64,000 nucleotides of DNA, taken from assembly GCA_030704615.1 (NCBI GenBank), contig CM060732.1:14880001-14944000 (forward strand), written 5' to 3'. The DNA comes from Takakia lepidozioides. Lineage: Eukaryota > Plantae > Bryophyta. The notes under the pieces were generated by a model, which saw nothing but the letters and a program-made list of their open reading frames with translations, was not told the DNA's origin and made no database searches. Of this stretch, positions 1 to 47,564 are shown one piece after another. Numbering within the stretch: position 1 is the first letter of the stretch; every line of letters begins with the position of its first letter. The translations under genes were made by a program, and so were the position numbers.

Positions 1-300
1 TTGGTCAACTGAGCCTTTGCAATGCTGCTAAATCCCTTGACAAACCGTCGATAGTAGTTTGCCAACCCCATGAAAGCATGAACTCTGCTAACATCTATGG
101 GGCATGGAATGCATGCAATGGCCTCCACCTTTGTCTTTTGAACACTATACCGGTAGGGCCTTCGAAAAATTGGCGTGTCACTTGTCAAATCAATACGAAT
201 CTCCTGACCCTTCAAACTCCCCAAATCCTTCAAACCGAAGGCAAAGCAATTTCTATAAGCCCTTAGAAATCACTGGATCCTCTGTCTCTCTCCTCCGGTG
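1..300 (-). pseudogene. Pol fragment of copy A with the RT core deleted
   Basis: 1-143 aligns to 16708-16847 of copy B (AFMGLANYYRRFVKGF region). 143-300 aligns to 17463-17620. The ~615 bp between, including YIDD, is absent. Confidence 0.8.
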
Positions 301-744
301 ACTGTAGGTCCAACATCTGGTTCCCAATTGTCCTCAATGACTGCAACCTTGGGTACACCAGGCTTGGAGGTAGGAGACGAATCCTTTGGTTGCTAGATAG
401 CAACCTCTTGGGCCTTGTCCGCCCAATCTGACTATGGCATAGCCTCCACTTGCTCCGCCACAGCCACCTTGAGAACATCCTCTGAGCAAGAAACATTCTC
501 AACCTCTTCAAAAACATTGGCCACCTTTGCTTCTAACTGATCCTCAGTGTATGGCTCTCCCCACTCCTCATATTGCTGCTTGAGAGATCCAAGGACTCTC
601 TCTTTGCGCATCTCATCCCACATCTGCCATGGGTGTTTGCAACCCACGATCTTGTGCTCGCCTCCACTCACTGCCTCAACCGTCCCGGTTGGCAAGGAGG
701 ATGCACCATCCAATGGGAGTGTAGAAATAGCCATCAATGCTTGC

Positions 745-1640
745 AATCTCCGTTGCTCCGCCATGCACAAGCCAATTATCCATGTCAAGCAATTTAGAAC
801 CGTTGCCTAACCCAACACCTGGCGTCGTGATGCCTCTGACAGAGCTGGCACAGCTGTAGTGCCCGTGGCAAACCCCATTGCCCGCTCGCGCTCATCCGCA
901 TCGGGCTCCGCCAATTGCTGTAGCACACTGTCCCAAATCAACCCAAGACCATTGTCTCAAAAAGCATGAGACGAGGGAAAGCTCATGAGCGTAGGCAAGG
1001 TTGTACGTGGTTGCCCCACTCGATTGACCACTGCTAGAGGTGGACGGTCATCATGTCGCACCCTCTGTAGTTGCCTCCCTTGGTCCAAAATGCCCTCAAC
1101 CGTGAGATTGGGTGGCCGTTGAATGGAATCATATGCTCTCTTGAGCAGCTATGGTGGTGCAAGATTGGTCCACCACAATCGAGGTCGATGCGTGCGTGAT
1201 CCCACCGCTGTTGCATCCAATAGCACCGGTGATCCAGTCCAAGACCGCACCTGATGCACACTGGCCATAACCCTGGCCCGAGAGTCCCCCATAAGAGGAA
1301 CATTCTCCAAAGATATAGGCTAGAGGTTGCACTTGCCTCGTCTGCAAGTCACGCAACACTCTCAACATCTCCCAAAACAAATGTGATCGTGCATCATGCA
1401 AGCCATTCCCATGACCTGCGGGAGAGTGTCATTGGCAAGGCACCTATCATTGTTGAATTGCTGAGAGAGGCAACAACTTAGGATACCAGTGTGTGAGCAA
1501 GGCGATGTGGCGCATAGAAATACACCGAGCTATCTCATCCTTCTCCACATACAAGTACTTGCGTACTTTAATCCCTGCTTGCAATACTCCTGCAAGCCCA
1601 GTGCTCATGCCTCCAAACAAGTCTAGCAAACAAATCCCTG
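745..1640 (-). pseudogene. DNMT3-like C5 cytosine methyltransferase domain of copy A (frameshifted, motif IV deleted)
   Basis: Motif I ICLLDLFGGMSTG, GHGNGLHDARSHLFWEM, frameshifted AYI/LENVP, and ERERAMGFATGTTAVPALSEASRRQVLG C-terminal motifs. The GWPCQG segment is missing near 1430. Confidence 0.85.
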
Positions 1641-3312
1641 AGTCAGGTGGTTGCCAGGTAATGGGCACTGTGTCCAAAGGAGCTAACTCAGGAGGTCCAG
1701 GTGATGTCACCGAACTCCCCTCACTCACCAATGGAAAGGCCTTCTGCCATGCTTGGTGCACACACTCGCCTGCTACTTGATGCAAATTCCCAACCGTACC
1801 CCACAGTGGAATATGCACAGGCACATGAGGACGCAAATCAGCCTTGTATGCCAATTGTTTGTCCTCATCAGGTGATGGTCTATCATCTGCATGGCTATTG
1901 CCCTCCAAGAGCTCACCACCCCAAGCCACCACCCCTGAGAATGCAGCCAATGTGGGCATCATGTTCTTATGATCCACCGCTACATTCCCAATAAACCACA
2001 CTGGGAGCAGTGCATGTCGGCCATCTCCTGACTGCCATTCCGGCCTGTAGGATGTCGTTTTCTCCCAAAAGTCCAAAGTAAATCCCATGGGGTACAGCAC
2101 AACCCCACCAACAAGCACATCATAGGACATCACGTCCGCTTTAGCTCTCATGACTGAGCCGTCTGTAGGATGATCCGGCTGCAATCGAATGAAGAGCTCA
2201 TGGCGTGTAATCACTCGTGCCTTCTCTGAACCACCCAAAGATGTTTGAATTTGGAAAGGGCAAGGCTCCAAATCCGCCTCTGTAAGGCCCAAGCCTGCAA
2301 TTGCTGCTCTTCCCAACATCAATGGCTGTGCTCCTGAGTCTAACAAGACTCGCAGTGGCCTATACCTCCCCCCCGCTGGGCCACCCAACTGAAACACACC
2401 ATCCTGATTGTCCACCAGGACTACCCCAGGAGTCACCATACTGCGCTCAATGGCTGGTCTAGCTGGCAACTCCTGCAACCTTGCAGCTACCGCTTGCCAC
2501 GGCGTAGCTGTGGCTGTCTTCACCCTTGAATCCAGGGCATTCATGCATTGCATCTTATCTGCTATCCCCGCAGATAGTGCCGATGCATCACCACTCTCAC
2601 AGAGTGCAGCTGCCAGTCTAAACACTGTAGCTGGCCGCATCCCTGACATTGCAATTGTCGTGGCAGAAAACAATGAAGCTTGACAAATTGCCGTAGCCAC
2701 CCCCAACAATGTACTGGCTGCACCTTGCTTTGTAGTACCACCCACTGGCATTTCCCGAGCTATATCAACTCTCCCCAATGGCACTCGTGGCTCTACCTCT
2801 GACACACTTGGGCGAGCGGGTGCCATCGATGGCATAGTTGGCACTGTCTCAGCCAATGTGAAAGACTGTGGAAGCCTTGTCTGCCGACTTGTTTCCCCTC
2901 TTTGTGGATCAAAATCCACATCCGCTCCTCTTGGCTCAGGAGCACGCGTTGCTGCTCGAGTGACAACAGCTGTAGAGTCCACATGCAATGGTCCTGCAAG
3001 TGCGGCTCCACATATGAAGCCCATACCAATCTGGTCTTCCCTAGGCATAAGAGGTTGTGCAGGTGGGGCTTGAACCTCAGGCCTTGGAGTTGGCGTAACA
3101 TGAGTAGTGGCCATGGTAGCAAGACGTTGCTCTAGCTGGGCAAGCCTATCTACCATGCCTTGGTCATGACCTTGACCGTGACCCTGTGCTCCTTGGTTTT
3201 GGTTACAACCTCCACCACGACCTCTGCCTCCTCTACCTCTCTGGACTACATTGCCTCGTCCTCGGCCACCATTGTTCCCTTGGAACTGGCTTGGCCGTAG
3301 CTCAGGATGCAA
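1447..3312 (-). CDS. Gag C-terminus / aspartic protease / DNMT N-terminus of copy A polyprotein
   Basis: 621-aa ORF with an RG-rich gag tail, retropepsin motif LLDSGAQ and VLVG, running in frame into DNMT motif I. Confidence 0.85.
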   Translation of the reverse strand: MHPELRPSQFQGNNGGRGRGNVVQRGRGGRGRGGGCNQNQGAQGHGQGHDQGMVDRLAQLEQRLATMATTHVTPTPRPEVQAPPAQPLMPREDQIGMGFICGAALAGPLHVDSTAVVTRAATRAPEPRGADVDFDPQRGETSRQTRLPQSFTLAETVPTMPSMAPARPSVSEVEPRVPLGRVDIAREMPVGGTTKQGAASTLLGVATAICQASLFSATTIAMSGMRPATVFRLAAALCESGDASALSAGIADKMQCMNALDSRVKTATATPWQAVAARLQELPARPAIERSMVTPGVVLVDNQDGVFQLGGPAGGRYRPLRVLLDSGAQPLMLGRAAIAGLGLTEADLEPCPFQIQTSLGGSEKARVITRHELFIRLQPDHPTDGSVMRAKADVMSYDVLVGGVVLYPMGFTLDFWEKTTSYRPEWQSGDGRHALLPVWFIGNVAVDHKNMMPTLAAFSGVVAWGGELLEGNSHADDRPSPDEDKQLAYKADLRPHVPVHIPLWGTVGNLHQVAGECVHQAWQKAFPLVSEGSSVTSPGPPELAPLDTVPITWQPPDSGICLLDLFGGMSTGLAGVLQAGIKVRKYLYVEKDEIARCISMRHIALLTHWYPKLLPLSAIQQ

Positions 3313-4537
3313 GTCATAACAATGGGCCTCTTCATGCCCATACTTGCCACAATGCCTACATTGTAGTTGTGTAGGCTGTGCCTGTGCCAGCCCTTTGCCT
3401 CTCTCCGGTCAATCTCTCTTAACATGGGGTCCTCCACAATCCCAACATGTCACTCCTGACTATTGTTGGCCTGAGAATGAAGGAAATGACCTCTGCAATT
3501 GAGATCCTCTCTGTCCTTCCCTGGGCTTCGCCTCAGCCCCCTTGTTGCCTTGAGCACGTTGGGGTAGTGGTTGTTGTTGGCTAGGAGCCCCACTTCGTTG
3601 TGTCTCCTTACCAAAACCCACCATGACCACTCGCTCCTCCACCATATTGAGCTCTATCTGCTCTGCCAGCAAAAACACGTTTGCTAAGGTGGGTTGGGCC
3701 ACTTGTAGGAGAGTTGCATCCCGCACCCTTCTCCTCAGCTCCTTGTCCAATATCCCATACCAGAATTGGACTGCTTGAGCTTCCGTAACCCTTGGGTTAC
3801 ATTTATCAATCGCCTCATGCACGTGTAAGCCTCCCTTAAACTCTCGGCAGGCTTTCGTTGGAACTCTTGCAAGCTCCGCAATTTCTCCGTCGTTATCCCC
3901 TGGTAGTTTCTCCTTAACTCCTCGGAAAACTCCACAACTGGGTTAAAGGCAGGCACGGGTGTTGGTGCTACAGCAGGAGCTTGGGTGGACTTCCCAGCTC
4001 CTGTTCCACTTGACGTCCCACTGCTGCTTGCAGAAGCTGCCGGTGTAGCTGCCGGTGTCACCACTGCCCTTGTGCCTCTAGTGATGGAGACATAGTCAGG
4101 TGACCAATACACCCGCCATTCCTCAATCTCCACCTCATGTCCCCGCCTAAACTCATGGTAGTCATCCATGGGCGGCCCCTCAAGGTGCTGAAACAGCCCC
4201 TTCCACACCATAAAAGGCGTAAACAGTTGTGGATTGCGCATCTGCTGCAAATCACACCACTATCAAACTCCTGTATGAAATCATCAAGCTCGATGGTGCC
4301 CACAGCTCCAGAGTACCAACGTGGCCCCTTGGTAGCTCCATACGTTTCCTCCATCGTATCCCACAACAATGGCACGGAAATGGCTTGCACCCTCGGCGAG
4401 AATCCTCCTAACTCTGAGTCTGAACCTTCCTCAGAAGACACTGAAGGTGAAGGTGGCCTAAACCGCACACCTCGTCTTATATACCCACTAGTATCGCTGG
4501 TGCTCGTACCGGCACTCTCCTCAGCAACTGGTGGCAC
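3246..4537 (-). pseudogene. Gag of copy A (frameshifted)
   Basis: Overlapping ORFs 4058-4537, 3735-4250 and 3460-3822 are homologous to the gag region of copy C; zinc-knuckle remnants near 3310-3450. Confidence 0.8.
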
Positions 4538-5329
4538 CTCCGTGGTGAAAACTCACAACCACACCTGTTGTAAACCTGTCTCTAATCCCTCTTTCCACAA
4601 GGTAACCGGGTAGAGAACCTGTTGCGGCTTATGGCTTAGACTACTAGGTTTGTAACATAAACTTGCACCTGCATCCACCGCAAGCACTCCTATGGTCTGC
4701 TGGTCATCAACCCAGTCTTACCATAAGAGAAACAATGATGGTATGACTGGTCATCACCCCAGCCTCACCACCGACAGCACGCTCTAGGATTGACCGGTGA
4801 TCAAATCCGGACCAACCTCCTGTGAAAACAAGCGCCCACACAAAGCTAACATGGCGCACAGTCAAGCATGCAGGTGTGGAGAGGATCCAAACACAAGAAA
4901 TCAAGACAACAACTCCCCCACACCAAGAACACTCCATAGTGTCGCTCCTGCAATGACACCCCAGCCCAAACCCGGACTGACTCTTGCCTCCACCTACAGA
5001 AAGGTTTTGGCCTACAGAGAGGGTGGAAGACTACAAGGAAGAGAGACTAAAGCAATTCCTATCATAGAATGCTCTCATCCCACTACCCTATCTCCACACT
5101 CTCTTGCTTGAACAATATACAAGACTACCTTTCAAGGGTCTCTCAAATAACTCTCCAGGAGCCCTCAAGAATATGTCTCTCAAACAATCTCACTAAGGCT
5201 CCTAATCCTTGCACGATGAGACTCCAAAACAGTACACCAAGGCCCCAAGCTTGCCAAAACTTAGCCCTCGAGGACCCCAATAGTCCCTCACACAAGTCGC
5301 CAAAGACTCCTCAAGCTCGCCAAATATTG

Positions 5330-9959: not shown

Positions 9960-10991
9960 TCAAAGAGCGTGGGAATTGTGGGGATCCAGCGAGGCAGCAG
10001 CTGCGGTGCTGACATCCAAGGATCGTGAGGGAGACCCCGGGTGGTGTCTGGGGGCACATATAGGGATTATTGGGGGAGCAGCTGATACGGGGGCCACCGC
10101 ATTGGCCTTCGCCTCTCCTTTTTCCTTGTGAGGACAGTCTACCTTGACATGCCCCTCCCCATTGCACCCAAAACAAATAATGCATAGGACTTCATCTTTG
10201 ATTTGTACTAAAATGAAGGATCCGTCCAGTGTTGGTAGTTTGATCGCAGATCCAATTTTGGCAGCATCTGGCATCATCACCACAATTTTGGGCACCCCAC
10301 TGTCCTTGTTAGATTCAAATAGGGAGGGGTCTTGCTCAACACTGAGCACAACATCATCTATGGGGTCAAAAACATTGAGACTACCTATGTAGGAGCCAAA
10401 GTGGGCTCCGATTTCCAGGAGCGACGCCAAATAGTTGTCTGGCAGGAATGGCAGGGCGATTATTCTGGGCTTGCAAGTTGCCCCATCCTTATGGCCCCAA
10501 GCCGGTGACCACGAAAAGATGTGCACCCAAAATTTGGATTTGCGCGTGTTGAATTGCAGGGCCCTGTCCGCATCCTCCTTTGATCCAAACTTAACCGTGT
10601 AAAAGCCTCGTCTCATTGAGTGGCAGAAGTGATGTGTGAGACCCCCTGTTGCTCCTAGATGCTCTATGACCCACTTACGAGCCCAATCTTTGTCTCTCGG
10701 GCGGCCTGGGAAGTGAACTAAGATGCCATGCTGCATCATCTTCGTGGAGTGCACCCTGAGACACTCCAAATCCAGCGGGATAATGTCCTGCGAGTCCGCT
10801 TTAGGGGCCATGGATTCCGCCCACAGAACCATGTCAGCAACCGCCGAAGGAGCATTAGTCTCCGGACCCTTATCCAAGATAGAGGCCGGGGCGGGGGTGG
10901 AGGCTGAGGCACGGGGAACCCAATTGCCCCTGCCGCGAGCACTAGAGTCGGATCTCGAACGTTTCTTACGAGGAGCACCCCTTGAAACCAT
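9960..10991 (-). CDS. LINE ORF1-like protein (DUF4283-type RRM region plus CCHC zinc knuckle)
   Basis: RGFYTVKFGSKEDADRALQ...HIFSWSP, IGAHFG and CFGCNGEGHVKVDC (CX2CX4HX4C). No ORF2 follows. Confidence 0.75.
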   Translation of the reverse strand: MVSRGAPRKKRSRSDSSARGRGNWVPRASASTPAPASILDKGPETNAPSAVADMVLWAESMAPKADSQDIIPLDLECLRVHSTKMMQHGILVHFPGRPRDKDWARKWVIEHLGATGGLTHHFCHSMRRGFYTVKFGSKEDADRALQFNTRKSKFWVHIFSWSPAWGHKDGATCKPRIIALPFLPDNYLASLLEIGAHFGSYIGSLNVFDPIDDVVLSVEQDPSLFESNKDSGVPKIVVMMPDAAKIGSAIKLPTLDGSFILVQIKDEVLCIICFGCNGEGHVKVDCPHKEKGEAKANAVAPVSAAPPIIPICAPRHHPGSPSRSLDVSTAAAASLDPHNSHAL

Positions 10992-11764
10992 GGAGGGGAG
11001 AAGAAAAGGACAAGGAGGGGGGGGGGGGGGGGGTGGGGGGTAAACGACTACTCACCGAAGCAGTCTAGAGAACGAGCGGAGGACTAGGAGCAGAGTGGGA
11101 GAGTAGGGGAACGAGGTCACCTTAAAGGATTTCGCAAGAGCAGGTAGCAGCTGGGCGGGCCTTGGAGGTAACAGATCCTTGATGAGAGCTGGAGGGGAGC
11201 CTGACAGATCAATAATGTCCAACAGCTCTTAAACTTGATGGCGGGGCAAGAGGAGCCGGCAGAATCACAAGAGGTACAGTGGCGGTCCGCCGGTTGATGA
11301 AGAGGAGATTAACACAATGGCAAGCTCTGACAGAGCTATCAAGAGGGGAGGGGCAGGAGGGGGACTAACGAGGAAGAGGCACTGCCAGTAAGAACTGACG
11401 AGGAGATCAGCAGCAAAAGGGCGGCGAGAGACTGGAGCAGGAGGGAGTAACTGTCGCGGCCCTTTACCTTGAGGGCAGGGGGTCGAGATGCAGAGGGGCT
11501 GCCCCTGTGGTGGGGGTGGTGGCAGCAATAGGTACGGGGGGCTGAAGCACCCTTGAGTCCCCAAGGCACTCAAGGAGGCGGAGGCGCTCACTAGGTGGAG
11601 CCCCGCACACCGGGTTGCGGTGGGGGTGGCTCCACAAGGGGTGGAGTTCCTGCTTTTGGTGTTCCATGCCAACTCTTATCAAAGATTTCTGTCAAATCTT
11701 TTATCCAGGGATGTACCTCAGATCTTTTACCTCGTGGTTGATCTTCTTCCTGTACCAATTCCCT

Positions 11765-12590: not shown

Positions 12591-13599
12591 ACTGAGGTGA
12601 ATAAGGGTAGGTCATGCCCAATGACTGCGGGTGATGTATGCAACGGAATTTGGGGATTTCAATCTTCTGTAATAATGACATGCACGGAGATAGTCTGCAC
12701 CGAACTCCTCAATCAGCCACACTGAGAGACACCAACCAGAAAAACTGTTTTCAAAGACAAGAAGCCACAAGAAGCCGTATTGTATTTGGATGAAAAGCAA
12801 ACCCTGAACATGACATGAAACCATCCATTATGGAAAGACGGCAACGACCCTGGAGACCAGTAAAGAGGAAACCCCGAATCTAATGAGGTTGTGCTCCGCC
12901 AGAAGAGCACAACACAAACACTGACACTTCGGGGGACACCTCGCACGAATGTGTGCAACACAACACCATTGCCGACACAAACCTTTATACCGAATCACCG
13001 CATTCCGACGGTGATGGCGAAATGCAAACCGCAGGGTAGGCAGTACAACATACGTGGATGCATATGTGAAGCATCACAATTATTGCGAATCTGCGGGGAA
13101 TGCTTGCGCGTGAGCCTATGAGCGTGTGAGCCCAGCCAGGCTCACGCCACGTCAGCAAGGTTTCCCACGTGCAGGACCTAATTCCGCGGATGCCACCTAT
13201 TTCCGCGGAACTGCAGACGACTACCACGCCCCAGATTTGCCAACATTAATTTCCGAGAAGTCTCATCCCTCATCCAAATCTTAGTCGGATGAGAAATCAC
13301 GGGTGGTTTGTGGATGATTTTTGTCCACGGGCACAGGATATTTCAGAGAGTACAATGTCATGTTGCGTAATGAACACGAAGGAGAATGAGTTTGTTCTAA
13401 TGAAGTTCCGTCCCCCCAATTCACATCCACTTTTCATTGATAGACGTTCTCCAGACAAACACCAGGAAATCCCTAAAGCGTCTTTGCGGTTTATGAAAAA
13501 AACATGGTGCAGAACAGGTTGGCAAGACTTGCAATGTAAGACACGAAACGAAGAACAACAGGGCCAGCAACTATACAAAATACAAAAAAAAGTCCTAAA

Positions 13600-13817
13600 A
13601 AAAGAATGCTTTCATTTTTCAAATCAAGGTTGCGTCAACGCAAGGTTGATTTGCATCACCCTCCCAGGAAAAAAAAAAAAAAAAAAAAAACACTTTCATT
13701 TCTCAAATCAAGGTTGCGTCAACGCAAGGTTGATTTGCATCACCCCCCAGGGAAAAAAATAAAAATAAAATCAAAAAATCAAAAAATCCAAAAAATGATG
13801 CTTCATTTCTCAAATCA
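13600..13817. repeat. Palindromic repeat array, left part (ttctcaaatcaaggttgcgtcaacgcaaggttgatttgcatcacc plus A-rich spacer)
   Basis: Two full units plus the start of a third, which is interrupted by copy B. Confidence 0.9.
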
Positions 13818-13819
13818 GC

Positions 13820-13886
13820 TGTCGTGCGCATACGTATCCCTACACAACTACATCGCTGTCCAAACCACACCACACATATATGCATA
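13820..13886 (-). repeat. Terminal repeat segment B2 of copy B (partial duplicate of 14240-14324)
   Basis: Direct repeat of 14240-14306 with one mismatch. Confidence 0.9.
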
Positions 13887-13888
13887 TA

Positions 13889-14324
13889 TGATAGAAAAGC
13901 TAAGTACACACTGTTGACACAAAACATGACAACCAAAACCATCACTCTTTAGAATAAAAGTCGAGCCAGGGGCACCCCAAGCTATGGGGACTCCACCCCA
14001 CAACAACCTACACTCCCATCATAAGCACACTCAGTCCTAAACGATGCAGGAGCTCGGTCACGCAGGCTCAACTCGAGAGAGATGAGCCGCGCGATTGCCG
14101 CTCTCGTGAAGATAAGACGGGTCAGGTGTCAAACTAAACTTGACACTTGATTTAACACTTGACCTAAATCCAAGTGTTAAATACAAATAACTAGCTTTAT
14201 TCTAGCTAATTTCACACTGTGCTTATTTAACTTGACAGCTGTCGTGCGCATACGTATCGCTACACAACTACATCGCTGTCCAAACCACACCACACATATA
14301 TGCATAGTAAAGTAGTCTGCCACA
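13889..14324 (-). repeat. 3' LTR of copy B = B1 (14240-14324) + GC + A2 (13889-14237)
   Basis: On the minus strand it starts TGTGGCAG directly after the PPT and ends CTATCA. Confidence 0.9.
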
Positions 14325-14336
14325 ATCGCCCCCCTA
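14325..14336 (-). promoter_or_regulatory. Polypurine tract of copy B
   Basis: Minus-strand AGGGGGGCGAT immediately precedes the LTR TG; identical in copy C (54863-54874). Confidence 0.8.
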
Positions 14337-14584
14337 GCTGGTGGATAGGTCCCTCTAACTCCAGATAGCTACAAGATGTAATAGCCACAGCCGTACTAAG
14401 TCCTCTATCACTGTCCCTATTGCACTCAAACCCTATAGACTAAGAGGCCAGGTACAAGAGTAGCCCCATCGTTAGTCGCCGTCTTGCAATCTGTGAACTT
14501 GAGCCAGGACCTCGTGTGTTCAAGGTCTCCTAGTAGCTGGGCCTTGCGTTTCTTGTTAGCCTTCCATGGTTGTATCCACTCCCA

Positions 14585-15833
14585 CTATCCAATGCAATGT
14601 GGACATAACCAATCCCCATCCGGAACCATCTCAAGAGGTGGAGTCAAGCATCCCATATGCCAACCTCTAGAGCATCGATCACACACCAGCATGGTGGCTG
14701 CCCCTTTAGCAGACCCACACAACATGCACCTCAAACCTGCAGATACCACTGCCAGGTTTGGGTCAATCCTGCCATCGACATTCGGAAGGTGACATGGCGC
14801 ACAATTACGCACATGGTCCTTCCAAGTTATGCCATCCCGACCCTCCAAGACCAAGACGCCTGAGGGCAAGACCTCTCGAACCCTCAAAATAACACGTCCT
14901 GCAGTCACATCCAGGGTCGTAGGAGCAGTCTGCTGCAGATAGACATAGTCACCAGGGTTGAATCTCCGAACCCCAGGATGATAGCCCCCACCACGTATGG
15001 TAGCATACCTCAACGTATCACGGTGTTGTGCAATGGCAAGGTTCTCGAAAGCCATGGGCATGACTCTCTTGAACAACTCTGCACGCTGCTCACATGCACG
15101 TGCCCACACGTCTGGATCGTCAAGGTTAAGAACTGTAGCAGCTTCTCTGCGAATGGATGTAGGCAAATCCGGCTCTCGGCCAAAGAGAAGAAAGTATGGT
15201 GAGAAGGAGGCAAGTGATGCTTGCTTGCTGAACCTGTAGCCCATGGCTAACCAGGGTAACTGAAGGTCCCAATCTCCTAGGTGTCCCTTCTGCAAGCCAT
15301 ACTTGCGCAAACCCCTCTTTACTGTCTGAACAACTCTCTCTGCCAAGCCATCGGCCTCAGGATGATCCCGAGAAGTGGTGCGGTGGTCTATCAAGGCCTT
15401 GTCACACAAAGCTTGAAACTCCCCCAAGAACTCTCTCCCTTGGTCCGTGAGTACCTCAGCTGGAGCACCGAATCGGCTAAGCACACAATCCAGGAATGCA
15501 TACGCAGCTCCCTCACTAGCCTTATCAGGCAATGGAACCAAGTTCAATCCACTTGGAGAAGTGCTCCACCATCACCAACACGTACTTGTTGTGGCGCATG
15601 GTCAGTGGCAACGGCCCTGCGAAGTCAAGACTCCACCTGTAGCCCAATCCCATGATCGGAAGAGGGTGCAATTGTGGAGTAGGGGCGTTGAATGAAGCAC
15701 GCACCCTGTCACACACCATGCACCTAGCCACAAATTGTTGCACCTCTGTGTGCATACCACGCCACCAATACTGCCCCTGCAGTAGACTATGAGTGCGTCG
15801 CACCCCAAAAATGCCCCAACTCCTCATGGGCAT
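14585..15833 (-). CDS. Integrase (HHCC, DDE core) with C-terminal PHD finger, copy B (frameshifted)
   Basis: H(ee)LGHFG...CMVC, WSLDFAGP, VLTDQGREF, GLAERVVQT. The C-terminus is CMLC-X11-CDRC-X4-H-X2-C-X14-CPHC (C4HC3). Confidence 0.92.
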
Positions 15834-16088
15834 GCCGCACTAAACGTGCCCGCTGTGTTGGGTGAGGCACAATCCTCACTCGACCATCCTCCCACACTCG
15901 GAGCAGGTGTGTCCCCTCCCACCTGAACCTCTTGGCTCGTTGTAGGATCCGATCCCTCTCCTTGGCAGTCACAGTGGCTGCCGTGTCTCCAGTGCGGAGG
16001 TAGTCCAACACAACTGAATCCTCATGTATATCTTTGGCGCCACCTTGTTCATTGCTGGCCTCAGGGTCCTCAGACACTTGATCCACAG

Positions 16089-17553
16089 TCATCCCAGTTG
16101 CAGGTCCAACCTGGCCTTCCGCTGCCAAGATACACAGAAATGCAGATGCATGCCATCCGGGCACCATCTCCTCATCCGTCTCACCATGCCACCGAGCCCA
16201 GTGTCATCCTGTTGGCTCGTGCATGGATTGCGACTCAACCCATCTGCATTACGATTGACCAAACCCGGTCGATGCACCACCTGAAAGTCATACTCTTGAA
16301 GGATGAGTGCCCACCGTGCAAGCTTCCCCGTAAGCTTGTCTGACTCCATCAACCACTTGAGTGGTTGGTGATCCGTGACAAGGGTGAAGAGATTGCCGTA
16401 TAGATAGCACCTAAAGTGTGCCACGGCCCACACTGCAGCTAAGCATTCTCCCTCATATGAGCTATACTTAGACTCTGCAGCGTTGTTCGAGCGGCTAGCA
16501 TAAGCCACTACGAACTCTCTCCCCTCATCATCCACCTGTGTGAGCACCGCTCCAAGCCCCAGCATGCTCCAATCTGTATGCAGCTGAAAAGGACGCCCCC
16601 TGATAGGTCGTCTCAAGATGGGCGCCGAGGTCAACCTCGCCTTGAGCTCTTGAAAAGCTTGTTCTTGCTCATCTTCCCACTGCCACTCCTGGTCCACCTT
16701 GGTCAGCTTGGTTAGAGCCTTTGCAATGGCACTAAATCCCTTAACAAACCGTCTGTAATAATTTGCTAACCCCATGAAAGCTCGAACTCGGCTCACATCC
16801 GTGGGGCGTGGAATCTGTGCAATGGACTCTACCTTAGTCTGCTGTACCCCCAATCCTCCAGGATATATCATGTGACCCAGATACTCAATCTGGTTGTGGA
16901 AAAACTTGCACTTGCCCGGATGTAACTTCAATCCGTGCGTCCTTAAGCGCTCAAATACCCCCTGAAGGTGTCTCTCATGCTCCTCCACCGTAGCACTAAA
17001 GATGATGATGTCATCTATGTAGCACCGAGCAAACTCCACCCCTGCTAGAATCCTGTCCATGACTCTTTGAAACTCAGCGGGAGCGTTTTTAAGCCCAAAT
17101 GGTAAGAACCGCCACTGGTATAGGCAATCCTTCCCATGCTCATTGATCCCCCAGAATGCCGTCTTTTGCTTATCCGCCTCCTTGATCGGCAACTGGTGAT
17201 ATCCGGATCGTAAATCCAACGTGCTAAAGACCTTGGAATGCCCAATGGCATCAAAGATCTCCTCTGGTGTTGGCATGGCATACCTATCGGACTTGGTCTG
17301 ACGATTTACAGGCCGGTAATCACCGCACATACGTCTCTCCGTCCAATTGCCATAGACATCCTTCTTAGCTGGCATCACTGTGGCTGAAGCATACTCTCCA
17401 CCAGAGAGCTCCACCAAACCTGCCTCCCAGAGTCCTCATCTGAATCAAAGACCTCTCTATGTCACTGTATCTATAGGGTCTCCGAAATATTGGCGTGTCA
17501 GTGGCCAACTCAATACGGATCTCTTGACCCTTCAGTGCTCCCAAGTCCTTCAA
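16089..17553 (-). CDS. Reverse transcriptase and RNase H, copy B
   Basis: RMCGDYRPVN, STLDLRSGYHQ, LPFGLKNAPAEFQ, CYIDDIII; RNase H LHTDWS, YEGECLA, VTDHQPL, NADGLSR. Confidence 0.95.
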
Positions 17554-17999
17554 ACTGAAGGCAAAGCAATTCCTGTAAGCCCTCAGGAACCGCCGTATAC
17601 ATCGTCTCTCTCCTCCGGTGACAATGGGTCCAATGTCAAGCTCCCAATTGTCCTCCGTAACTGCAACCTTAAGTCCAGTGGGCTTAGAGGTAGAGGACGC
17701 GTCTCGTGGTTGCTATGCTGCAACCTCTTGAGCAGTACTCCCTTCCTGCTCAGTCAATGACAAGGCCTCATCCTGCCCCATCATCTCATCATTGAGAACC
17801 TCCTCATCCCGAGAAGAATCCCCAACCTCATCCATCACAGCTGCCTTGGCTGCCACCTCCCTCTGAACCTCGAGCACCTCCCACGTGTGCCATGGATGTC
17901 TACACCCCGAGGTCCTCACCGGCTCGCCCCCACTCGCTGCCTGTACCGTCTCGGTAGGCAGAGAGACCGTCAAGGGAAGTGCACTCCGCACTCTACGTT

Positions 18000-18951
18000 G
18001 CTCAGCCATAGCCAAGCTGATAATCCAGGTCAAGCAATTGAGATCCATTGCTTGCCCCAACACCTGACGACGTGATGCCTCCGAAAGAGAAGGCACCGCC
18101 GTGGTCCCAGTGGAAAATCCCATAGCCCGCTCTCGCTCGTCGGCATTAGGCTCCACTAACTGTTGCAACTGGCTATCCCACAAGAGGCTAGGTCCACCAT
18201 CCCGAAAAGCATGGGATCCTGGGAAGCTGAGCAGTGTAGGTAATGCTGCTCATGGTTGACCCACCCTGTTGACCACTGCCAAAGGCGAACGGTCATCGTG
18301 TCTCACACGTTGAGACTGCCTCCCTGTGTCCAAAATGCCATCCACGGTGAGGTGTGCTGGCCGTTGCACCCCATCAAATGCACGCTTAAGCAGTGCGGGT
18401 GGCATCAAGTTAGTCCACCAAAGCCGTGGACGATGAGCCCGTGATCCCACTGCAGCTGCATCCAGCAACACTGCTGACCCAAGCCACGACCGGACTTGAT
18501 GCACACTGGCCATCACCCTGGCCTGAGAATCACCCACCAGTGGCACATTCTCCAAGATGTATGCTGGAGATACAGCTTGATAAAGCTGCAAGTGGCGCAA
18601 AACCCGCACCATCTCCCAAAACAGACCCGTCCTCGAGTCTCGCAATCCATTGCCATGCCCGGCTGATGAATGCCCTTGGCAGGGCCAACCTGCCACTATC
18701 AGATCAATGGAGCCAACCTGCTCCAAATCTTGCGCCCCCAACAAGGAAATGTCTGCTGGCAAGGCTTGAACTGCAGACACTGGCAACAAAGCAGGGTACT
18801 GCTATACCAACTGAGCAACATGGCGCAGTGAGACGCGTCGTGCAATCTCATCCCTCTCCACATACAGGTAACGCCTTACCCGCACACCTGCCTGTAGCAC
18901 AGCAGCCAATTCGGTGCTGATCCCGCCAAACAAGTCCAGAAGGCAAATGCC
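18000..18951 (-). CDS. DNMT3-like C5 cytosine methyltransferase domain, copy B (catalytic PCQ and ENV intact; frameshifts elsewhere)
   Basis: IDLIVAGWPCQG (IV), GLFWEMVR, YILENVP (VI), DAAAVGSRAHRPRLWWTNL (VIII), ERERAMGF...RRQVLGQAMD (IX/X); motif I at ~18900-18950. Confidence 0.92.
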
Positions 18952-19241
18952 TGTGTTCCAAGCCTAGCTTTCACCCACTTTGGTATTTCACCTACAGCTG
19001 CAGAACTGCTGGCTCCAACAGAGTTCTGACTGTCCAAGGCGATATTGAGGCCCTCAATGCCAATTACAGCAGTCTGTTGTCTACTGCTAATGCCTGACTC
19101 CCAGTATGCAATCAACTCGTCCAACTGTTCTCCACTCAAATCAGTCTGAGTTCCTTGGGAAACATAAATCCTATCCCCTTGTGTGCACAGGCTAAGAGAA
19201 GAGACCTGCCCTTCAATTACGTCCTCATTTCCCCCAGCCAT
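18952..19241 (-). pseudogene. Truncated extra ORF (ORF0) of copy B
   Basis: The first ~97 aa match 62873-63622 and are fused out of frame to the DNMT by an internal deletion. Confidence 0.8.
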
Positions 19242-20088
19242 ACAAGGAGTACATCCACAGATTTGTCTCTCATATAGACCAGAACAGGTTCTAGAAACAG
19301 AATTGTGGATCTTTCATGGCACACTCACACTCTAAAAATTCCATAGATTTTTAGCAGAGTCCCAAAAACTAAAACCAGATCAAGATAGATAGATTTCCCC
19401 TTTCTGCAGCTATCCCCCCAAAAACTGAGTCAAACGGAGTCCATCTGACAAAGTTATGACCAATTAGGCTCTAAATCATTTAAATTAGATCTAAAGGTTT
19501 TTTTTTTTTTTTTTTTTTAACACCAAAACGTTCTCACCATTACAACCTGTTCCCAGGTTATCTATGGGTTCCCGAGGCCGTTCCCCTCCAGGCTTCTCCA
19601 GGCACCAAGAACTCTCCAACTCCAAGACTCGACCTCAGTTATGGATGGGGTATCACACCCTGGAGCAGCAGGCGTGCGATAACGGATTGCCCTTCATCAC
19701 CGAATTGGGGACAATGGCAGAGCTCGAGCGCCTGGGCTTAAGCGCATCCGAGATTGATGATCTCCGACACAGTCTCAAGGCATTTCCACATGCCTTTCAG
19801 CTCTACATCAGCGGCAGATTTTGAGAAGTCATGCAGACAGACTGCTACAGCCTAACACTTTACAGCAAATTGAAATTCCTTGTGTCTGGGCATCAACACC
19901 GAAAGCCTATGTAGGTACGCATGCAAAAATTGTTGATGATGGCTGATATATGTGCCTATTCAAGAGGCCCGTTGCAGGTTAAAGGGCGATTGGTAGGGAA
20001 ATAGGCAAGAGTACTTTCCACTGAGCTGACCTTACGATCCCCAGAACTACTTGGAAACGGTAGCAACGAGAGCAGAGGTCGGACCTCA

Positions 20089-20388
20089 TCAGTGGGAGGG
20101 CACCCAGATGAGATCATTATGAGTTGACCAATGGCATGCTTCGGCTCCCTGAATAATGTTGAGAGCCGTGAAGGCAGGATGCTCTGATGCCCAGAGACTG
20201 GTATCCAAATGACATATGGCGACTGCGTGAATGATTGATCCATCTACAGCTGCCAACGACGCCTGCACCACCTTGGTTCCTGTGACATGATGGCAGTAGT
20301 AGAGAGCCGAAGGAAACATAACGTTGTGGCAAATGACAACATTCTCGCCCTCTACCACACTTCGCTTGGTAAAGTCAACAACCTTCAC
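20089..20388 (-). pseudogene. BURP-domain gene fragment captured inside copy B
   Basis: Four CH dipeptides and a terminal W (VICH...YYCH...AICHLDTS.W...ACHW...LIWVP), the BURP signature. Confidence 0.8.
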
Positions 20389-20488
20389 TGGTGCCTTGGT
20401 AATGCCTACACGTCCCAGTGATTTTGGTGAACAAGACTGACAAGGCCAACAGTTTTTTTTTTTTTTTCAAGAAAGCTGCTAGGTGCTT

Positions 20489-21222
20489 TCAGCAGGCAAG
20501 TGAGAGTGGATCGCTCAGGTGCGTGGCCCAGTTGTCCAAGGGACCCTTGCCTGTAGCAGCAGCTTGCACAGCAAAACCCAAAGCAGCAACCATGGCCAGC
20601 CTTGCATGCTTAATTTCGGCGAGTTTTAGAACCTCTTTCTTCTCGGGGTCAGCTGCCAGTCCGAGGGGATCGAAGTACTTGCCACCAGGATACAAACGCC
20701 TCTCTGGGTCTAACTCGGCATTCCTTTGGAACTCAATGTATCCTACCACAAGAGTCTCAATCCAGACAAGAGCAGAGATGCTGAACGGCAACGAGAGACC
20801 AAAGTAAGAGGGACCATCAGCAAGTTCCACCTTTACAGCATCTTGCCATGTCACGCCAGTGAACGTCTCGACAGACAACGCTCAACAATGGCAAGCATTG
20901 CCCATTTACCGTGGATCAGTTCGCATTCCTTGAACCTTTGGAGGCCGAACACCTCACTGTACGGTCGGAAGGGAATGGGGTTGATATCCTTCTTCTTATC
21001 AAGACGGGTTCCGATCACAACTCTAGCAGAGTTCTTAGCCAAGTTCTGGTTCAGTGAATCCAGCTCGAACTGCAGATACTCTGGAGATTTTCCCAAGGAC
21101 AGTGGATCGAAACCGTAGTCACCAACCAAAGATCCATCCAGCCCAGACGGGGCCTTTGCACCTGGGAACCACAGAGGCCTATCCGCCGACCCAGTCTTCT
21201 TAGACCCAAACAGCAGGTCCAA
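20489..21222 (-). pseudogene. LHCB4: Lhcb4/CP29 chlorophyll a/b-binding protein fragment captured inside copy B (frameshifted, intronless, ends truncated)
   Basis: [82 protein letters not shown]. Confidence 0.9.
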
Positions 21223-21428
21223 CCCACCTGCTTGTTGGCTTGGACCCGCTACATTCCCAGGAGGTTAGAACTGCTGTAGTGACACTTCGAGTGGTTCCTG
21301 CCTTTCTGTTATGCTCCACTAGGCACACATAGCCAGTCTACCTACCGGCTCTCGTGACCAAGCTATATTATAATAGTGCTTAAAAACAAAAACGTCACAT
21401 CTAGCTTAGCACTAGAAAACTAGATACA

Positions 21429-21444
21429 GCTCATCTCTCTCGAG
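21429..21444 (-). promoter_or_regulatory. Primer-binding site of copy B, self-priming type
   Basis: 16 nt directly adjacent to the 5' repeat end; perfect reverse complement of 21628-21643 inside the same repeat; no TGG tRNA-type start. Confidence 0.75.
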
Positions 21445-21793
21445 TGATAGAAAAGCTAAGTACACACTGTTGACACAAAACATGACAACCAAAACCATCA
21501 CTCTTTAGAATAGAAGTCGAGCCAGGGGCACCCCAAGCTATGGGGACTCCACCCCACAACAACCTACACTCCCATCATAAGCACACTCAGTCCTAAACGA
21601 TGCAGGAGCTCGGTCACGCAGGCTCAACTCGAGAGAGATGAGCCGCGCGACTGCCGCTCTCGTGAAGATAAGACGGGTCAGGTGTCAAACTAAACTTGAC
21701 ACCTGATTTAACACTTGACCGAAATCCAAGTGTTAAATACAAATAACTAGCTTTATTCTAGCTAATTTCACACTGTGCTTATTTAACTTGACA
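21445..21793 (-). repeat. 5' terminal repeat A1 of copy B
   Basis: 349 bp, TGTCAAG...CTATCA on the minus strand. About five differences from A2 (13889-14237). Lacks the 85-bp B segment. Confidence 0.92.
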
Positions 21794-22040
21794 CAAGGTT
21801 GCGTCAACGCAAGGTTGAATTGCATCACTCCCCAAGGAGGAAAAAAAAAACAAATCTTCAAAAAATGATGCTTTCATTCTCAAATCAAGGTTGCGTCAAC
21901 GCAAGGTTGATTTGCATCAACCCCCCCCCCCCCCAGGGAGGAAGAAAAATAAAGAAAAATAAAAAATAAAAAATAATGATTTCATTTCTCAAATCAAGGT
22001 TGCGTCAACGCAAGGTTGATTTGCATCACCCCCAGGGAGA
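21794..22040. repeat. Palindromic repeat array, right part (continuation of 13600-13817)
   Basis: Three more caaggttgcgtcaacgcaaggttga units. Confidence 0.9.
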
Positions 22041-22197
22041 AATAAAAAATAAAAAATAAAATAAAATCGTATGTCTGTCGGTGTATGTCACGTCATCAAT
22101 CATGTTGTGCGTGCGTCTACCATTTGTTGCATTCGTTCCTCAAACTCATTTGTTCATTTGCGAACACATCAAGTCACATTCAAATGAACATTCTCGG

Positions 22198-29344: not shown

Positions 29345-30974
29345 GTTTCTACCTTAGCTCGACTCCACCACGGGTAGGGTGGTATGGAGTTGAGCGCTGT
29401 GTGAGGCATTGTGTAGCGGAGAGCCGATTTCCGTATAATAGGTAGTAAGCTAGGAGGAGTTTGTTTATATAGGAACTATTGGTGTTGTTTGTATTAAGCT
29501 TGGTTTCTTGTAATAGGATAATATGTGGAGGCGTAGTGTCTGTGAGAAGGTGTATTAGACTTTGGATGCTAATGGCCAATGAACCGACATTCCAAGTGGT
29601 TATGTTGAGTGAGTTTGCGTGTTGGGGAGGAGTGGGTTGGGAGTGGTTGGGTGAAGCAGGCGTTGGGGGGTCCCTGTTGTGAGTAGGTGTGAATGACGAG
29701 AGGGGAGGGCGGGGGGGGGGGGGGGGGGGTGCCAGCGAGGGTTGATATCTTGCAATGGTGGAGGTAGCTTGGAGGGTGGCGGAAAGAATGTTGTTGGATA
29801 GGAATGGAAATTTGTTGGTGATAGTATGAGAGTCTAGTGCGGGGTTTGCTAACTGTTCACCTATATTTTGTGAGCTTCCCCTGGTTTGGATTGTAAGAGG
29901 TGAAGCGACGTGTGTAGGTCAGATAGGTAGTGAGGGGGGTCCAGGTATTGGGGGGACTTTGTAGTTTGTGTAGAAGTGTGTGGACCTGTGAGTCTGAATG
30001 GGCCTCAAAGTAGTCGTTACATATTGTTGTTGGTGGGGAGATAATGATGATTAGGGAAAAGAGAAGGTGTTGTGCGGGGTATGTTCTGAATTCATGGGTA
30101 GCTTTAGCGAGCGCTAGGTATTGACATGGAAGAAGGCCAAATTTGGCAATTGGCTGGGTGGATGTGTGAGTGGTGATTGATATGTTTAGAAGAAAGGGAG
30201 AGAAGTGGTCGCAAAAGTGTTGATATGCGGGTACTAATGAAATGGTGTTTATTTGAAAATATAGTGCATATATTTCTTGTGGGTCAATTGAGAGTTCACC
30301 AATGAGGTCATTGATAGGGTTTGGATGAATGTCTCCACATCGCATAAGTATAAGTGTTGCACATGCAATTTTAATTGTGTTGTGATGTGAGGGGGGGGGG
30401 GGGGGGGGGTGGTGCTGTGAATGTTTAGATTTAAGGGGGGTATTGATGGTATCGGCCATGCGGGCAGTGGGTAATAAGGTAGGTTTTAGGAGTTCGGTAT
30501 ATAGGTGTACACAGGGGGTAGGTAGCGTGGGGGTGTGTTTGAAGTATATAGTAGGGGGTAGTATTCAAGGGTAAGAGTAGAACGGGTCTTTGATGAGTGA
30601 GAGGGGGAGTCTATTAACGGGCAATTTTTGTGTGCCGAATAATTTCCATGAGAAAAAATGCTTTAAGTATGGAACGGAGATGATGAAGAGTACCACAGAC
30701 CGAGTTGTTGGCGGTGGGGTATTGTTGAGCAGGACGTTGGCTTAGAAAAATATGAATGAAATGGTATAGTATGAGTTGGTACAGCATGAATGTAGAAGCT
30801 GATATGGGAAATAGTGGTGTGTAGGGTAGACGATTTAAAATGGTTGTTCGTGAGACATGGTATGATAGGGTCTTTGTAGATACCGCGGATGTAATATGAT
30901 GTGCAAGGAAGATGTAGATCGTTGTGTGAATGTGATTGAATTGAATAGCAGTAGTGGGGAGGAGGACCTTCCCA

Positions 30975-31145
30975 TGGTAACCAGTATACCCGAATTGTTT
31001 GTGAGAGAGAATTGAATCTGGTGAGATGAAATGGTGACCAGTATACCCGAATTGTTTGTGAAAGAGAATTAAATCTGGTGGGATGAAATGGTAACCAGTA
31101 TACCCGAGTTGTTTGTGAGAGAGAATTGAATCTGGTGGGATGAAA
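30975..31145. repeat. Three tandem 57-bp units
   Basis: accagtatacccgaattgtttgtgagagagaattgaatctggtg.gatgaaatgg x3. Confidence 0.9.
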
Positions 31146-32189
31146 TTCTTGTGATAGCGTGCATGTAAAGTAGTATTGCAAATTGCAAGGACCCCCGCAG
31201 GTGGAGGTAATCAAAGAGAGTAATGCTAGGATTGGGATAGCACTTGAACAATAAAATGAAAGCTGTGTGCTGTCTAAGATCTGTGGGCATCTAGCAAAAT
31301 ATAACACACAAATTGGGGAAGTTAGCAACCATCTGCGAGAGAGCGGGATGTGAGTGTGCACATGGGGGCTCCAGTCAACATAGCCACAGGAGGACCTTAG
31401 GCACGTTGGACTTGGAATAAGTTGAGCGGGAGCTGCCGCGGTGCTTTCAGGATCCTGGTTGTAGACTGAGAGTGCAGCCGAGGTGCCTTGTAGATGGTGG
31501 ACACCGTCCCCGGGGTGGGGGGCCACCCGTTTACTTGTGTTCACAGTGTGAATGGGTAGCACGGCCATTTTGATCTGTAATTGCTGCATAGAGGGAACAG
31601 ATAAGATTAGTTATGGGGAAGTGAGTGGGAGAGAGAATAAGGGGAAGTGCCATCATAGTGCTATTGGATGGTGTAGTGTAATCTCTGGTAATGATAGAGC
31701 GGCTGTATGGTGCCTGTAGTATGGTCAGAGACAGATTGGTGATGAGAGTGTAAATTATGACAAGAGGAGGTGGGGGAAGGAGGGTAAGAGGGTTCCCTGA
31801 ATCTCGAGGAACTTTGGTGTATCTGGTTGCCGAGGCACGACCGAAACGGCTGCTGAATAGTCCGCCCTCGTCCAGCAGTAAGTTGCAGTATATCTCCGCC
31901 AAACTGAGATTCCTGGTATGCAGCAATATACAGAGAGGCCTGGGGAACGAGGTCTGGGTAGAATCTGGTTGTGAAAACTCCATTAATAGATGCAACAGAA
32001 TATCCGAGCTGGGCATAAGCGACAAATCTACGTGATGTGGTATTTAGGTGAGCTCCCGTGTTGAGATATTCAGAGTGCTGGCTTGGGTGGCTTGTACGTA
32101 AGCGCAAATTTGCGTGTATCAGCAACATCCCTTGACGCTCTGGGGCCACGGTTGCTCAACTGCCACCAGGTTATAGTCGAGTGGGTAAC

Positions 32190-32360
32190 GTTATCAGATA
32201 TAATCTCAGCTAGGGCTTGACCTCCAGCCAGACCAGGATAGCCTGCCCACAGTATACTTTGAGCACGGTTGTCATCCTTGGCAGAGGACACATCAGCTGG
32301 CCCTCCAGATAGAATGACGAGCACTATTGGGCCACTCTTGGCAGCATCCAGAACAGCAGA
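32190..32360 (-). pseudogene. GH3 beta-xylosidase C-domain fragment
   Basis: GPIVLVILSGGPADVS...SILWAGYPGLAGGQALAEII. Confidence 0.8.
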
Positions 32361-32599
32361 AATATCAATGCCAAATTGACCCGGAACTTGAATGGCGTAC
32401 TCCACCGCAACCTCAGAAAATTCCACTTTCATGCACTGGTTTCATTGACGTCAGTACCTCTGAAAGAGTACTCTCCATTCTCTATTACAAGCTCTTGGCC
32501 ACTGTTGCGTCCAATTATAAGCAGATGCTTGACTATCGCCCTCAACTTTTGGCGCCCCAGCATTTGATGATAGGTTGCCGAAGCATCCAGCCTGCACCC

Positions 32600-32885
32600 G
32601 TGTTGAGCATATCCAAGATTGGCAGGAATGGTGCCTTCCATGTGATTGAACCACAACATCAAGCTCTCCAAGTTGGCTAGATTCCCGAACTCTAGTGGAG
32701 TTGTTCCAGTAATATAAGCAGAGATCCGGCGTTATAAGCTGTGTACAGTTGGAGAGCCGAAGAGGAATTATGCCAGGAAAATTATTGTCTGGAAGGAGTA
32801 GACTCTCCAGTTTCGAAGCAACTTCACAAAGTCCAACATGTATGTTCCCATGAAAAAGGTTTGAACTCAGGTCGAGAAACTTCAT
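32600..32885 (-). pseudogene. LRR receptor-like gene fragment
   Basis: Plant LRR consensus: FLDLSSNLFHGNIH, LESLLLPDNNFPGIIP.LSNCTQL, LESLMLWFNHMEGTIPANLG. Confidence 0.8.
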
Positions 32886-33843
32886 CACTTCAGCAAAAGT
32901 TAGCTGTTTATGCCGAGCCATATTCAATAGTCCAGTTGTTTTGAAGTGGTTGCCGGGAGTTGTCCAGGAGGCCTCGTCCATTGCAGTGTCCAGGGGGCCA
33001 CTGTCTGGTCGGTGGCTGTATGAAAATCCAATCTCTTCCATGTCTCCAAGTGGTGGACAGCCCTTTTCCCACCCCCTTATCCAGCCCACGAATCAAACTA
33101 AACTGGGTAGTATGATTGTCAGTGCACATGTGCAGTTGCACAGAGAGGACACAGTTTAACAATTGCTTCACATTAGCAGTGTAATATGACCAGCGGTAAT
33201 CAATAGAAAGCAGATGGTGTAGGTTTATAAAGATATCTGCCAGCCAGTTGATTGCGAGGTGCTCAGTGCACATATGTGGTTTAGTATTGACAGTAAACAA
33301 GTAGGAAGCACGGCAGGGTGTGAAAACAGATTCAGAGAAGAGAAATTTGGATGAAGTGGGCAGAGAATGGCATTAGTTATTGGATTAGCAGTAGCACAGT
33401 AGGATAAATCTGACCTTCGGCTTATGCAAGAAACGAACCAAGGACGGGCAGCTGATATGTAGGAATAAGGAGTAAAAAACTGGCTCTGTACTTTCACAAA
33501 CCAATGGTGGTGTGGGATGGGACTGTTGCACCTGAGAGAGCAGTTGTGGAGCCAGTGCGTTTGTAGAATCGTAGCCAGTTGGGAGTACTGCACATTGGTA
33601 GTAGTAATGCTGGAGGTGAACTGCCAGGGTTGTGTGCTCTGAGCAGACGTGCTGGCTGCTTCAGTTCCATCCAATCGAAGATGAAGACTTGCCTGGTCTC
33701 CAGTTATGCCTGGTCTCCATATCAGCCTTTCCCAAATTTTGAGGAAGATGTATCCCTCATTCCCTCCTGCCTGCTGGATCCCATAGAACCTTTCCACACT
33801 CTCCATACCGTGAAGGTTTGTCTCTCGAACTGCAGGCGCATCC

Positions 33844-34150
33844 ATGCAAGTCACCCGCCGAGCTGGTGGGGGCTTTGGTGGCAAGTCTTTTCGTAACTGT
33901 CTGGTTGCGGTATCTTGTGCACTGGCGGCTTACAAGCTGGAGCGGCCAATGCGGATATCACTTGATAGAATCACGGACATGATTCTGCCAGGCGGGCGTA
34001 GTCCTACAAAAGCTACCCTCCCTGTGGAATTTACTGCCGAGGGGAAAGTGGCAGCCCTCCAAGCTCATGCGATAATCGAGGGGGGTTGGTCTGGTGATGT
34101 CAGCACCTTCCTACCAGGGTATTTGATGTCTGCCATGAAGAACTACCCTT
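33844..34150 (+). pseudogene. Aldehyde oxidase / xanthine dehydrogenase molybdopterin-domain fragment
   Basis: TRRAGGGFGGK...ALAAYKLERPMRISLDRITDMILPGGRSP...GKVAAL. Confidence 0.85.
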
Positions 34151-47491: not shown

Positions 47492-47564
47492 AGCCTGATC
47501 CACTGAAACTACACTAACCCTAGAGCAAAAAAGAAATAAGGGTTGGCGTACGTTGGTGTGCACG

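Follow-up and report, generated by a model that had tools for sequence, protein, structure and literature searches.

Copies of the element and the finger at the end of integrase

The window, by which we mean the whole stretch of 64,000 nucleotides analysed, carries three minus-strand copies of a Ty3/Gypsy retrotransposon with the order Gag, protease, DNMT3-like domain (DNMT), stop, RT, RNase H, integrase and PHD finger, and with repeats arranged as A-coding-B-A-B. Copy A occupies 1-5011 and is about 70% identical to copy C, copy B lies at 13820-21793, and copy C extends from 54341 to at least 63711. All three copies are defective, carrying frameshifts or extra stops. In copy A, Gag, protease and the start of DNMT form a single frame of 653 codons (1447-3408), and the integrase and PHD finger would fall past the window edge. 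In copy B a deletion with its junction near 18950 has removed Gag and protease; this copy contains the DNMT3-like C5 cytosine methyltransferase (18004-18957, with two in-frame stops), RT and RNase H (16290-17336, flanked by frameshifts near 17430 and 16197), integrase with its H2C2 zinc finger, core and C-terminal beta domain (14731-15860, with frameshifts near 15810 and 15545) and the PHD finger with its stop codon (14585-14730). Copy C includes Gag with a CCHC knuckle and aspartic protease (60100-62790, broken), the DNMT3-like domain (58536-59472, frameshifted), RT, RNase H and integrase (55268-58207, broken by frameshifts) and the PHD finger (55122-55267).

The catalytic motifs I, IV, VI and VIII of DNMT occur in the standard order, and the domain, intronless and unrearranged, matches PF00145. 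For the DNMT of a relative, L002, the best matches were DNMT3A/B/C (E 1e-8), bacterial enzymes giving 1e-5 or worse. A total of 59,153 contigs of run X1 matched the region 13500-19400, a figure that is not a copy number; runs X1 and X2 may be the window's own sample, and read depth is not usable as copy number. The X1 contigs over this region therefore indicate many variant copies in the host. No RNA run was listed as a holder of the element among 18 runs, and run X6 may be RNA.

In copy B, repeat A1 (21445-21793) forms the 5' end and begins with TG, and the coding region is followed by B1 (14240-14306), A2 (13889-14237, with 4 differences from A1 in 349 bases) and B2 (13820-13886), which forms the 3' end and terminates with CA, all on the minus strand. 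The B1-A2-B2 repeats of copy C were located at its 3' end (54341-54864, minus strand), and no A1 of copy C was seen within the window. The full layout was also detected in L006, L042, L047 and L048, with a target duplication of 4 bases in L006 and L042 and a 3-of-4 match in L047. L006 and L042 have different flanks and share the identical 4-base duplication, two cases hinting at a sequence preference. Copy B is inserted inside a tandem repeat with units of about 90-110 bases (13584-13817 and 21794-22066); its target duplication is imperfect, and at its right junction the same two-base spacer appears as between the internal B1 and A2. No tRNA-type primer site was found after repeat A1 of copy B. 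The 16 bases after A1 (21429-21444, minus strand) are the exact complement of A1 positions 151-166 (21628-21643), which suggests self-priming as in Tf1; the match at the same place is 8 bases long in L006, L047 and L048 and absent in L042. Further into copy B, between 19330 and 21445, fragments of BURP and chlorophyll a/b-binding genes (20089-21264) replace the element's own 5' sequence, a capture of host genes by this deleted copy.

The finger of copy B is encoded as C-x2-C-x11-C-x2-C-x4-H-x2-C-x14-C-x2-C, followed by two residues and the stop. Pfam PHD (PF00628) matched in two copies with E values of 7.3e-11 and 6.6e-11, at 42 bits against a cut-off of 24. The predicted fold, built from an alignment of 22 sequences, showed block pLDDT values of 83-90 across the finger, and the model superposes on solved PHD fingers at 0.6-1.7 A across 46-51 columns. 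The claim of the earlier note for copies B and C, that integrase terminates in a C4HC3 PHD finger, is thus borne out. So is its placement of the finger where chromoviruses carry a chromodomain. Pfam detected PHD at the integrase C-terminus and no chromodomain there, the frame stopping two residues after the last Cys. Chromovirus membership, considered for the element, was rejected without a chromodomain. The wording that PHD "ends the pol ORF" needs a qualification: the finger is terminal to integrase in both copies, but frameshifts leave no continuous pol frame in either, and DNMT is located beyond a conserved stop.

The fingers of copies B and C are identical at 146 of 146 bases, in line with the identical peptides of the two copies. 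Over the rest of the coding region B and C differ at 1.3% of sites, and at 0.5-0.8% within RT, RNase H and integrase. At this divergence, the probability of finding no difference in 146 bases is about 0.14, and the identity was rejected as a mark of selection; it reflects a recent duplication. Among the variants listed at 14600-15493, 20 in number, 12 are silent and 8 are replacements; the three inside the PHD finger, two of them silent, are too few for a silent-versus-replacement reading.

H3-tail positions of the PHD finger

The best PDB matches of the finger were CHD4, PHF12, PHD1 of KDM5B and KDM5A, ATXR5, DPF, BHC80, BAZ2, UHRF1 and AIRE. Its closest solved relatives are thus readers of the H3 tail (KDM5A/B PHD1, ATXR5, BAZ2, UHRF1 and AIRE). 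In the alignment with KDM5A PHD1, the window finger retains the H3A1 pocket (L309, P331, G333 and W335) and the aspartate for H3R2 (D312). By the same alignment, the acidic K4 patch (D292 and E305/D306 in KDM5A; D1688/E1689 in BAZ2A) and D315 are absent from the window finger, where Ala replaces D292, E305 and D306, and Ser replaces D315. The roles of the KDM5A residues were taken from the text seen of 10.1101/715474, where D312 is described as essential for H3R2 and where D292A and E305A each reduced binding about 6-fold; neutralisation of the same acidic patch in BAZ2A caused a 17-fold loss (PMC5415848, which also describes the conserved Trp of H3K4me3-reading PHD fingers). Given losses of 6- to 17-fold elsewhere when these acids are missing, the predicted H3 binding of the window finger could be very weak.

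The comparison covered 121 fingers, 112 being canonical and 9 off-pattern. Among the 112 canonical fingers, Asp after the third Cys was found in 104, and the Pro, Gly and Trp of the A1 pocket in 103, 99 and 103, respectively. The residue two positions before the zinc-binding His, which we take to be the site of the cage Trp in methyl-K4 readers of the ING2/BPTF type, is Gly in the window finger and in 107 of the 112, and Trp in none. The window also contains a host gene with introns (41679-47644), of which the N-terminal PHD finger (46880-47644) carries Trp at this position, as in H3K4me3 readers, in contrast to the finger of the element. An acid at the K4-patch position was present in 20 of 26 fingers from the group with RNase H-DNMT-integrase (chlorophyte-type), and in 8 of 33 fingers without in-frame DNMT, a group including the window's kin. 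Prediction of the complex between the finger and the H3 tail gave a score of 0.26 against a mark of 0.34; the controls were unfolded, and this result was counted neither way on binding.

Based on these residues, the finger looks like a reader of unmodified H3, or of the free H3 N-terminus, rather than of H3K4me3. As both the acidic K4 patch and the methyl-K4 Trp are missing, discrimination of the K4 state by the finger in the window's lineage appears doubtful. The proposal of the earlier note that the finger is a histone reader is supported by its nearest solved relatives and weakened with respect to K4 by the lack of both features.

The same pattern could be read differently, the finger no longer usefully reading histones and serving as a zinc-stabilised cap for integrase folding or multimerisation, or for binding DNA or a non-histone host factor. 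The lack in the window finger of the acids that give KDM5A and BAZ2A their affinity, and the low frequency of the acid among fingers without in-frame DNMT as compared with the RNase H-DNMT-integrase group, agree with such a role; against it, the A1 pocket and R2 aspartate are retained in 99-104 of the 112 canonical fingers, and we consider this reading doubtful.

The in-frame stop and the co-occurrence of PHD and DNMT

All three copies in the window carry, in the interval between DNMT and RT, an in-frame TAG followed by CAA CCA, which conforms to a stop plus CAR-YYA: copy B at 17707-17715, copy C at 58241-58249, and copy A, about 70% identical to C, at the same place (387-395), all on the minus strand. 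After examination of the relatives, a stop plus CAR-YYA was detected in 22 of 25 DNMT-to-RT segments, comprising 19 of 22 loci (8 with TAG and 11 with TAA) and the three window copies; after clustering at 85% identity, 13 of 15 clusters had it. L011, L044 and L046 were left out of this count, as insertions place RT more than 1,200 bases away. The expectation from shuffled sequences was 1.46, and 36 of 643 control windows contained the motif. In 21 of the 22 positive segments the motif is in frame with the sequence preceding RT. The exact motif is absent from three segments, L026 and L027 being one base off and L008 having none; L044 and L046, outside the count, are one base from the motif. In all four variant runs, two of which (X5 and X9) came from other studies, no variant at 3% or more was found at 17707-17717, and the adjoining positions 17704-17706 and 17718-17719 vary.

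The ends of DNMT homologues agree with this arrangement. Of 40 homologues, 25 are protease-DNMT proteins, most with the Gag knuckle, ending 57-143 residues past DNMT, and 8 terminate within 37 residues after the DNMT match; 7 continue into RT, RNase H or integrase, 5 of these being genome gene models. None of the 40 lists a PHD finger. Conservation across segments, clusters and runs, together with these ends, indicates that the stop between DNMT and RT is a feature of the family and not decay. The readthrough signal of tobacco mosaic virus is a stop with CAR-YYA behind it; its efficiency is about 10%, and a UAA in this context is decoded as well (PMC2754532). We infer that readthrough takes place at the predicted site. 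Given the conserved stop, DNMT would likely be made at the level of Gag, and integrase-PHD only by the predicted readthrough. The separation of reader and writer by the stop is not universal in the clade: DNMT and RT share an open frame in P0178 (one frame of 2,811 residues), P0013 and P0020, and in none of the three window copies.

A search with integrase-PHD retrieved 337 proteins, and PHD was present in 119 of the 120 listed, a fraction biased by the query, which itself contained PHD. The hosts named through integrase-PHD were Marchantia, Pleodorina, Volvox and Tetrabaena; Coleochaete and Hariotina were named too, and those named through DNMT were Marchantia, Calypogeia, Sphagnum and Closterium; no match in the protein searches bore the name Klebsormidium. 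Among the 120 listed proteins, 30 are of the form RNase H-DNMT-integrase, with DNMT placed after RNase H and before integrase and sharing the frame of PHD, 21 are DNMT-integrase with RNase H not in view, 2 are DNMT-RT, 35 have RNase H-integrase and no DNMT in the same protein, and 32 show integrase only. A quick tree of RT-RNase H with 60 rows was divided 30 versus 30 with an SH-aLRT of 100. One side contains the window, Coleochaete and the forms with DNMT before RT, and the other all RNase H-DNMT-integrase forms plus three nested proteins without DNMT; as this tree was midpoint-rooted, with no outgroup and no reference RTs, no order of events is claimed. One protein, P0086, has the order protease-RT-RNase H-integrase-PHD with no DNMT and is nested among DNMT-bearing relatives.

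At the level of loci, 34 of 74 had matches to both RT and PHD, of which, duplicates included, 25 had DNMT, 6 had none and 3 were too short. The six were considered as DNMT-free elements and rejected as such, because the five that were checked also lack same-strand Gag and protease matches and are therefore truncated. The survey of PHD and DNMT across the clade, suggested in the earlier note, thus shows that the two co-occur, and the pairing, which that note took to have been assembled by the element in the window, has long been present in a green-lineage clade. From the co-occurrence counts, the domain orders and the tree, PHD is the constant partner of integrase and DNMT the movable part.

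Two proteins of chlorophyte type, P0186 and P0052, continue for hundreds of residues beyond PHD and show a weak match to Tudor (PF21743), below the cut-off, possibly a second reader. The Marchantia gene models Mp_4g09160, Mp_8g17980 and Mp_7g09570 (P0217, P0219 and P0006) resemble parts of the element. Marchantia models labelled hypothetical protein or methyltransferase appear to be its first ORF, which matters for inventories of bryophyte DNMT3.

In reader-writer enzymes of the DNMT3 ADD type, the reader adjoins the catalytic domain on one mature chain. The element might be coupled likewise, PHD bringing DNMT to a chosen chromatin state so that the insertion site and its flanks become methylated. 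The presence of DNMT in most RT-plus-PHD loci is in agreement with such coupling, as is the chlorophyte-type clade, where DNMT directly precedes integrase-PHD in one frame, and proteins separated by cleavage could re-associate on cDNA. In the window, however, the two domains are located at opposite coding ends, about 1,100 codons apart, and the stop between them would leave most DNMT on a chain free of PHD in this lineage. DNMT also changes position, PHD staying with integrase, and PHD persists where DNMT is missing, as in P0086 and in Gypsy-7a_cRei, the legend of which lists PHD and no DNMT (PMC9940879). The analogy with DNMT3 and ADD drawn in the earlier note is therefore not supported for the window element, and coupling of PHD to DNMT in its lineage is judged unlikely. 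We also consider it unlikely that, at this one step, the stop is bypassed through splicing, or that the RT-integrase-PHD frame is initiated separately. Such a bypass would fit the five genome gene models that span DNMT into RT, RNase H or integrase, and the many RT-integrase-PHD proteins whose called start is a methionine about 100 residues ahead of RT. The models may simply avoid the stop through predicted introns, however, and the six bases after it form the readthrough consensus, which in 21 of 22 positive segments is in frame with what precedes RT.

Proposed mode of action and comparison with known systems

The best explanation, to which we give a probability of about 0.6, is an element encoding Gag-protease-DNMT, a stop predicted to be leaky and RT-RNase H-integrase-PHD, in which PHD likely tethers integrase to H3 tails and DNMT likely works apart from it, on DNA newly made by the element. 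Most ribosomes would terminate after DNMT, making Gag-protease-DNMT the major product, and readthrough would yield RT-RNase H-integrase-PHD at roughly a tenth, the figure being that of tobacco mosaic virus (PMC2754532). Cleavage by protease would then release DNMT and integrase-PHD as separate proteins. The abundant DNMT in the particle could methylate the cDNA, an idea of de Mendoza et al. (PMC5890265). PHD would contact A1 and R2 of the free H3 N-terminus; in this lineage such binding would be weak and would hardly discriminate the K4 state. Docking of integrase-PHD may bias integration, at most modestly, toward nucleosomal DNA lacking H3K4me3.

A more specific picture is offered only tentatively: particles loaded with a DNMT3-type enzyme at capsid level, cDNA methylated before insertion, PHD on the scarce integrase directing it to H3K4-unmethylated chromatin, and split repeats combined with self-priming. 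If true, this would be a transposon arriving pre-silenced in silent chromatin, from a clade widespread in the green lineage and so far unclassified.

Among known systems, KnitGypsy-Dnmt3 of Klebsormidium nitens (PMC5890265) resembles the window element in the Gypsy domain set, the intronless and unrearranged DNMT3-like domain, the DIRS-like A-coding-B-A-B repeats and the streptophyte host. It differs in that DNMT is described there within the Pol ORF together with RT, whereas the window copies have the conserved stop plus CAR-YYA between the two; the window element is therefore a variant of the KnitGypsy-Dnmt3 kind and not KnitGypsy itself. The text and supplement text seen of PMC5890265 gave 0 matches for PHD, and its Fig. 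4c may show one; its passages on KnitGypsy-Dnmt3 mention no land-plant or chlorophyte relatives. The DNMT of KnitGypsy showed no activity in yeast, a test called inconclusive by its authors (PMC5890265). EpiLTRs (bioRxiv 10.64898/2026.05.21.726589) likewise combine a histone reader and a cytosine methyltransferase in one retrotransposon, but their reader is a chromodomain, an adenine methyltransferase is added, and their DNMT is sister to DNMT4; streptophyte Gypsy-DNMT3 is also named in that preprint.

Within the green lineage, PHD was described in the Gypsy polyproteins of Gypsy-7a_cRei and REM1 of Chlamydomonas (PMC9940879; REM1 as cited there, PMC6673714), and PHD domains are called widespread in retrotransposons in the latter. 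Gypsy-7a_cRei, which by its legend differs from the window element in having no DNMT, inserts into intergenic DNA 2.6 times over chance, and targeting was proposed (PMC9940879). Chromoviruses (PMC6317226) share with the window element a chromatin-reader module at the integrase C-terminus; the latter differs in carrying PHD instead of a chromodomain, its own DNMT and split repeats. The parts seen of that classification of plant LTR elements leave both PHD and methyltransferase unmentioned. As to the finger, KDM5A/B PHD1, BAZ2A/B, ATXR5 and UHRF1 share its fold, A1 pocket, R2 aspartate and lack of the methyl-K4 Trp (PMC5415848, 10.1101/715474), and the window finger differs in having neither their N-terminal aspartate nor their acidic patch ahead of the first strand. 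The stop resembles type I readthrough of tobamoviruses (PMC2754532), where the same motif lies between an abundant upstream product and a polymerase-bearing extension. In the window it follows DNMT inside a retrotransposon. A candidate readthrough in the rice gypsy element RIRE2 is noted in PMC2754532.

Both the idea of a reader plus writer and PHD-bearing retrotransposons are thus already in print. Literature outside most subscription journals, Repbase entries, figures and preprint supplements yielded no report of PHD, a leaky stop or land-plant copies for Gypsy-DNMT3, and what is new and informative here is the conserved, predicted-leaky stop. The question of why retrotransposons would retain an enzyme of silencing has stood since 2018. 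The conserved stop offers a specific lead on it, as DNMT is predicted to outnumber integrase; such a surplus agrees more readily with methylation, within the particle, of cDNA made by the element than with writing on host chromatin under the guidance of PHD. Marchantia and the volvocine algae have relatives of the element as well as chromatin maps and genetics, so that PHD specificity, readthrough and insertion bias can be tested there.

Other mobile sequences were also observed in the window. The regions 9960-11051 and 29349-33929, where an ORF1-like frame with a zinc knuckle and a fragment of an endonuclease were seen, are probably broken LINE elements; a fragment of a hAT transposase dimerisation domain lies at 52700-53260; and a pair of inverted repeats of about 200-400 bases at 34262-35510 is probably a non-autonomous DNA transposon. 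Outside the window, 46 contigs of the viral collection (L075-L120) code for proteins resembling histone H3, and the tails of several are divergent.
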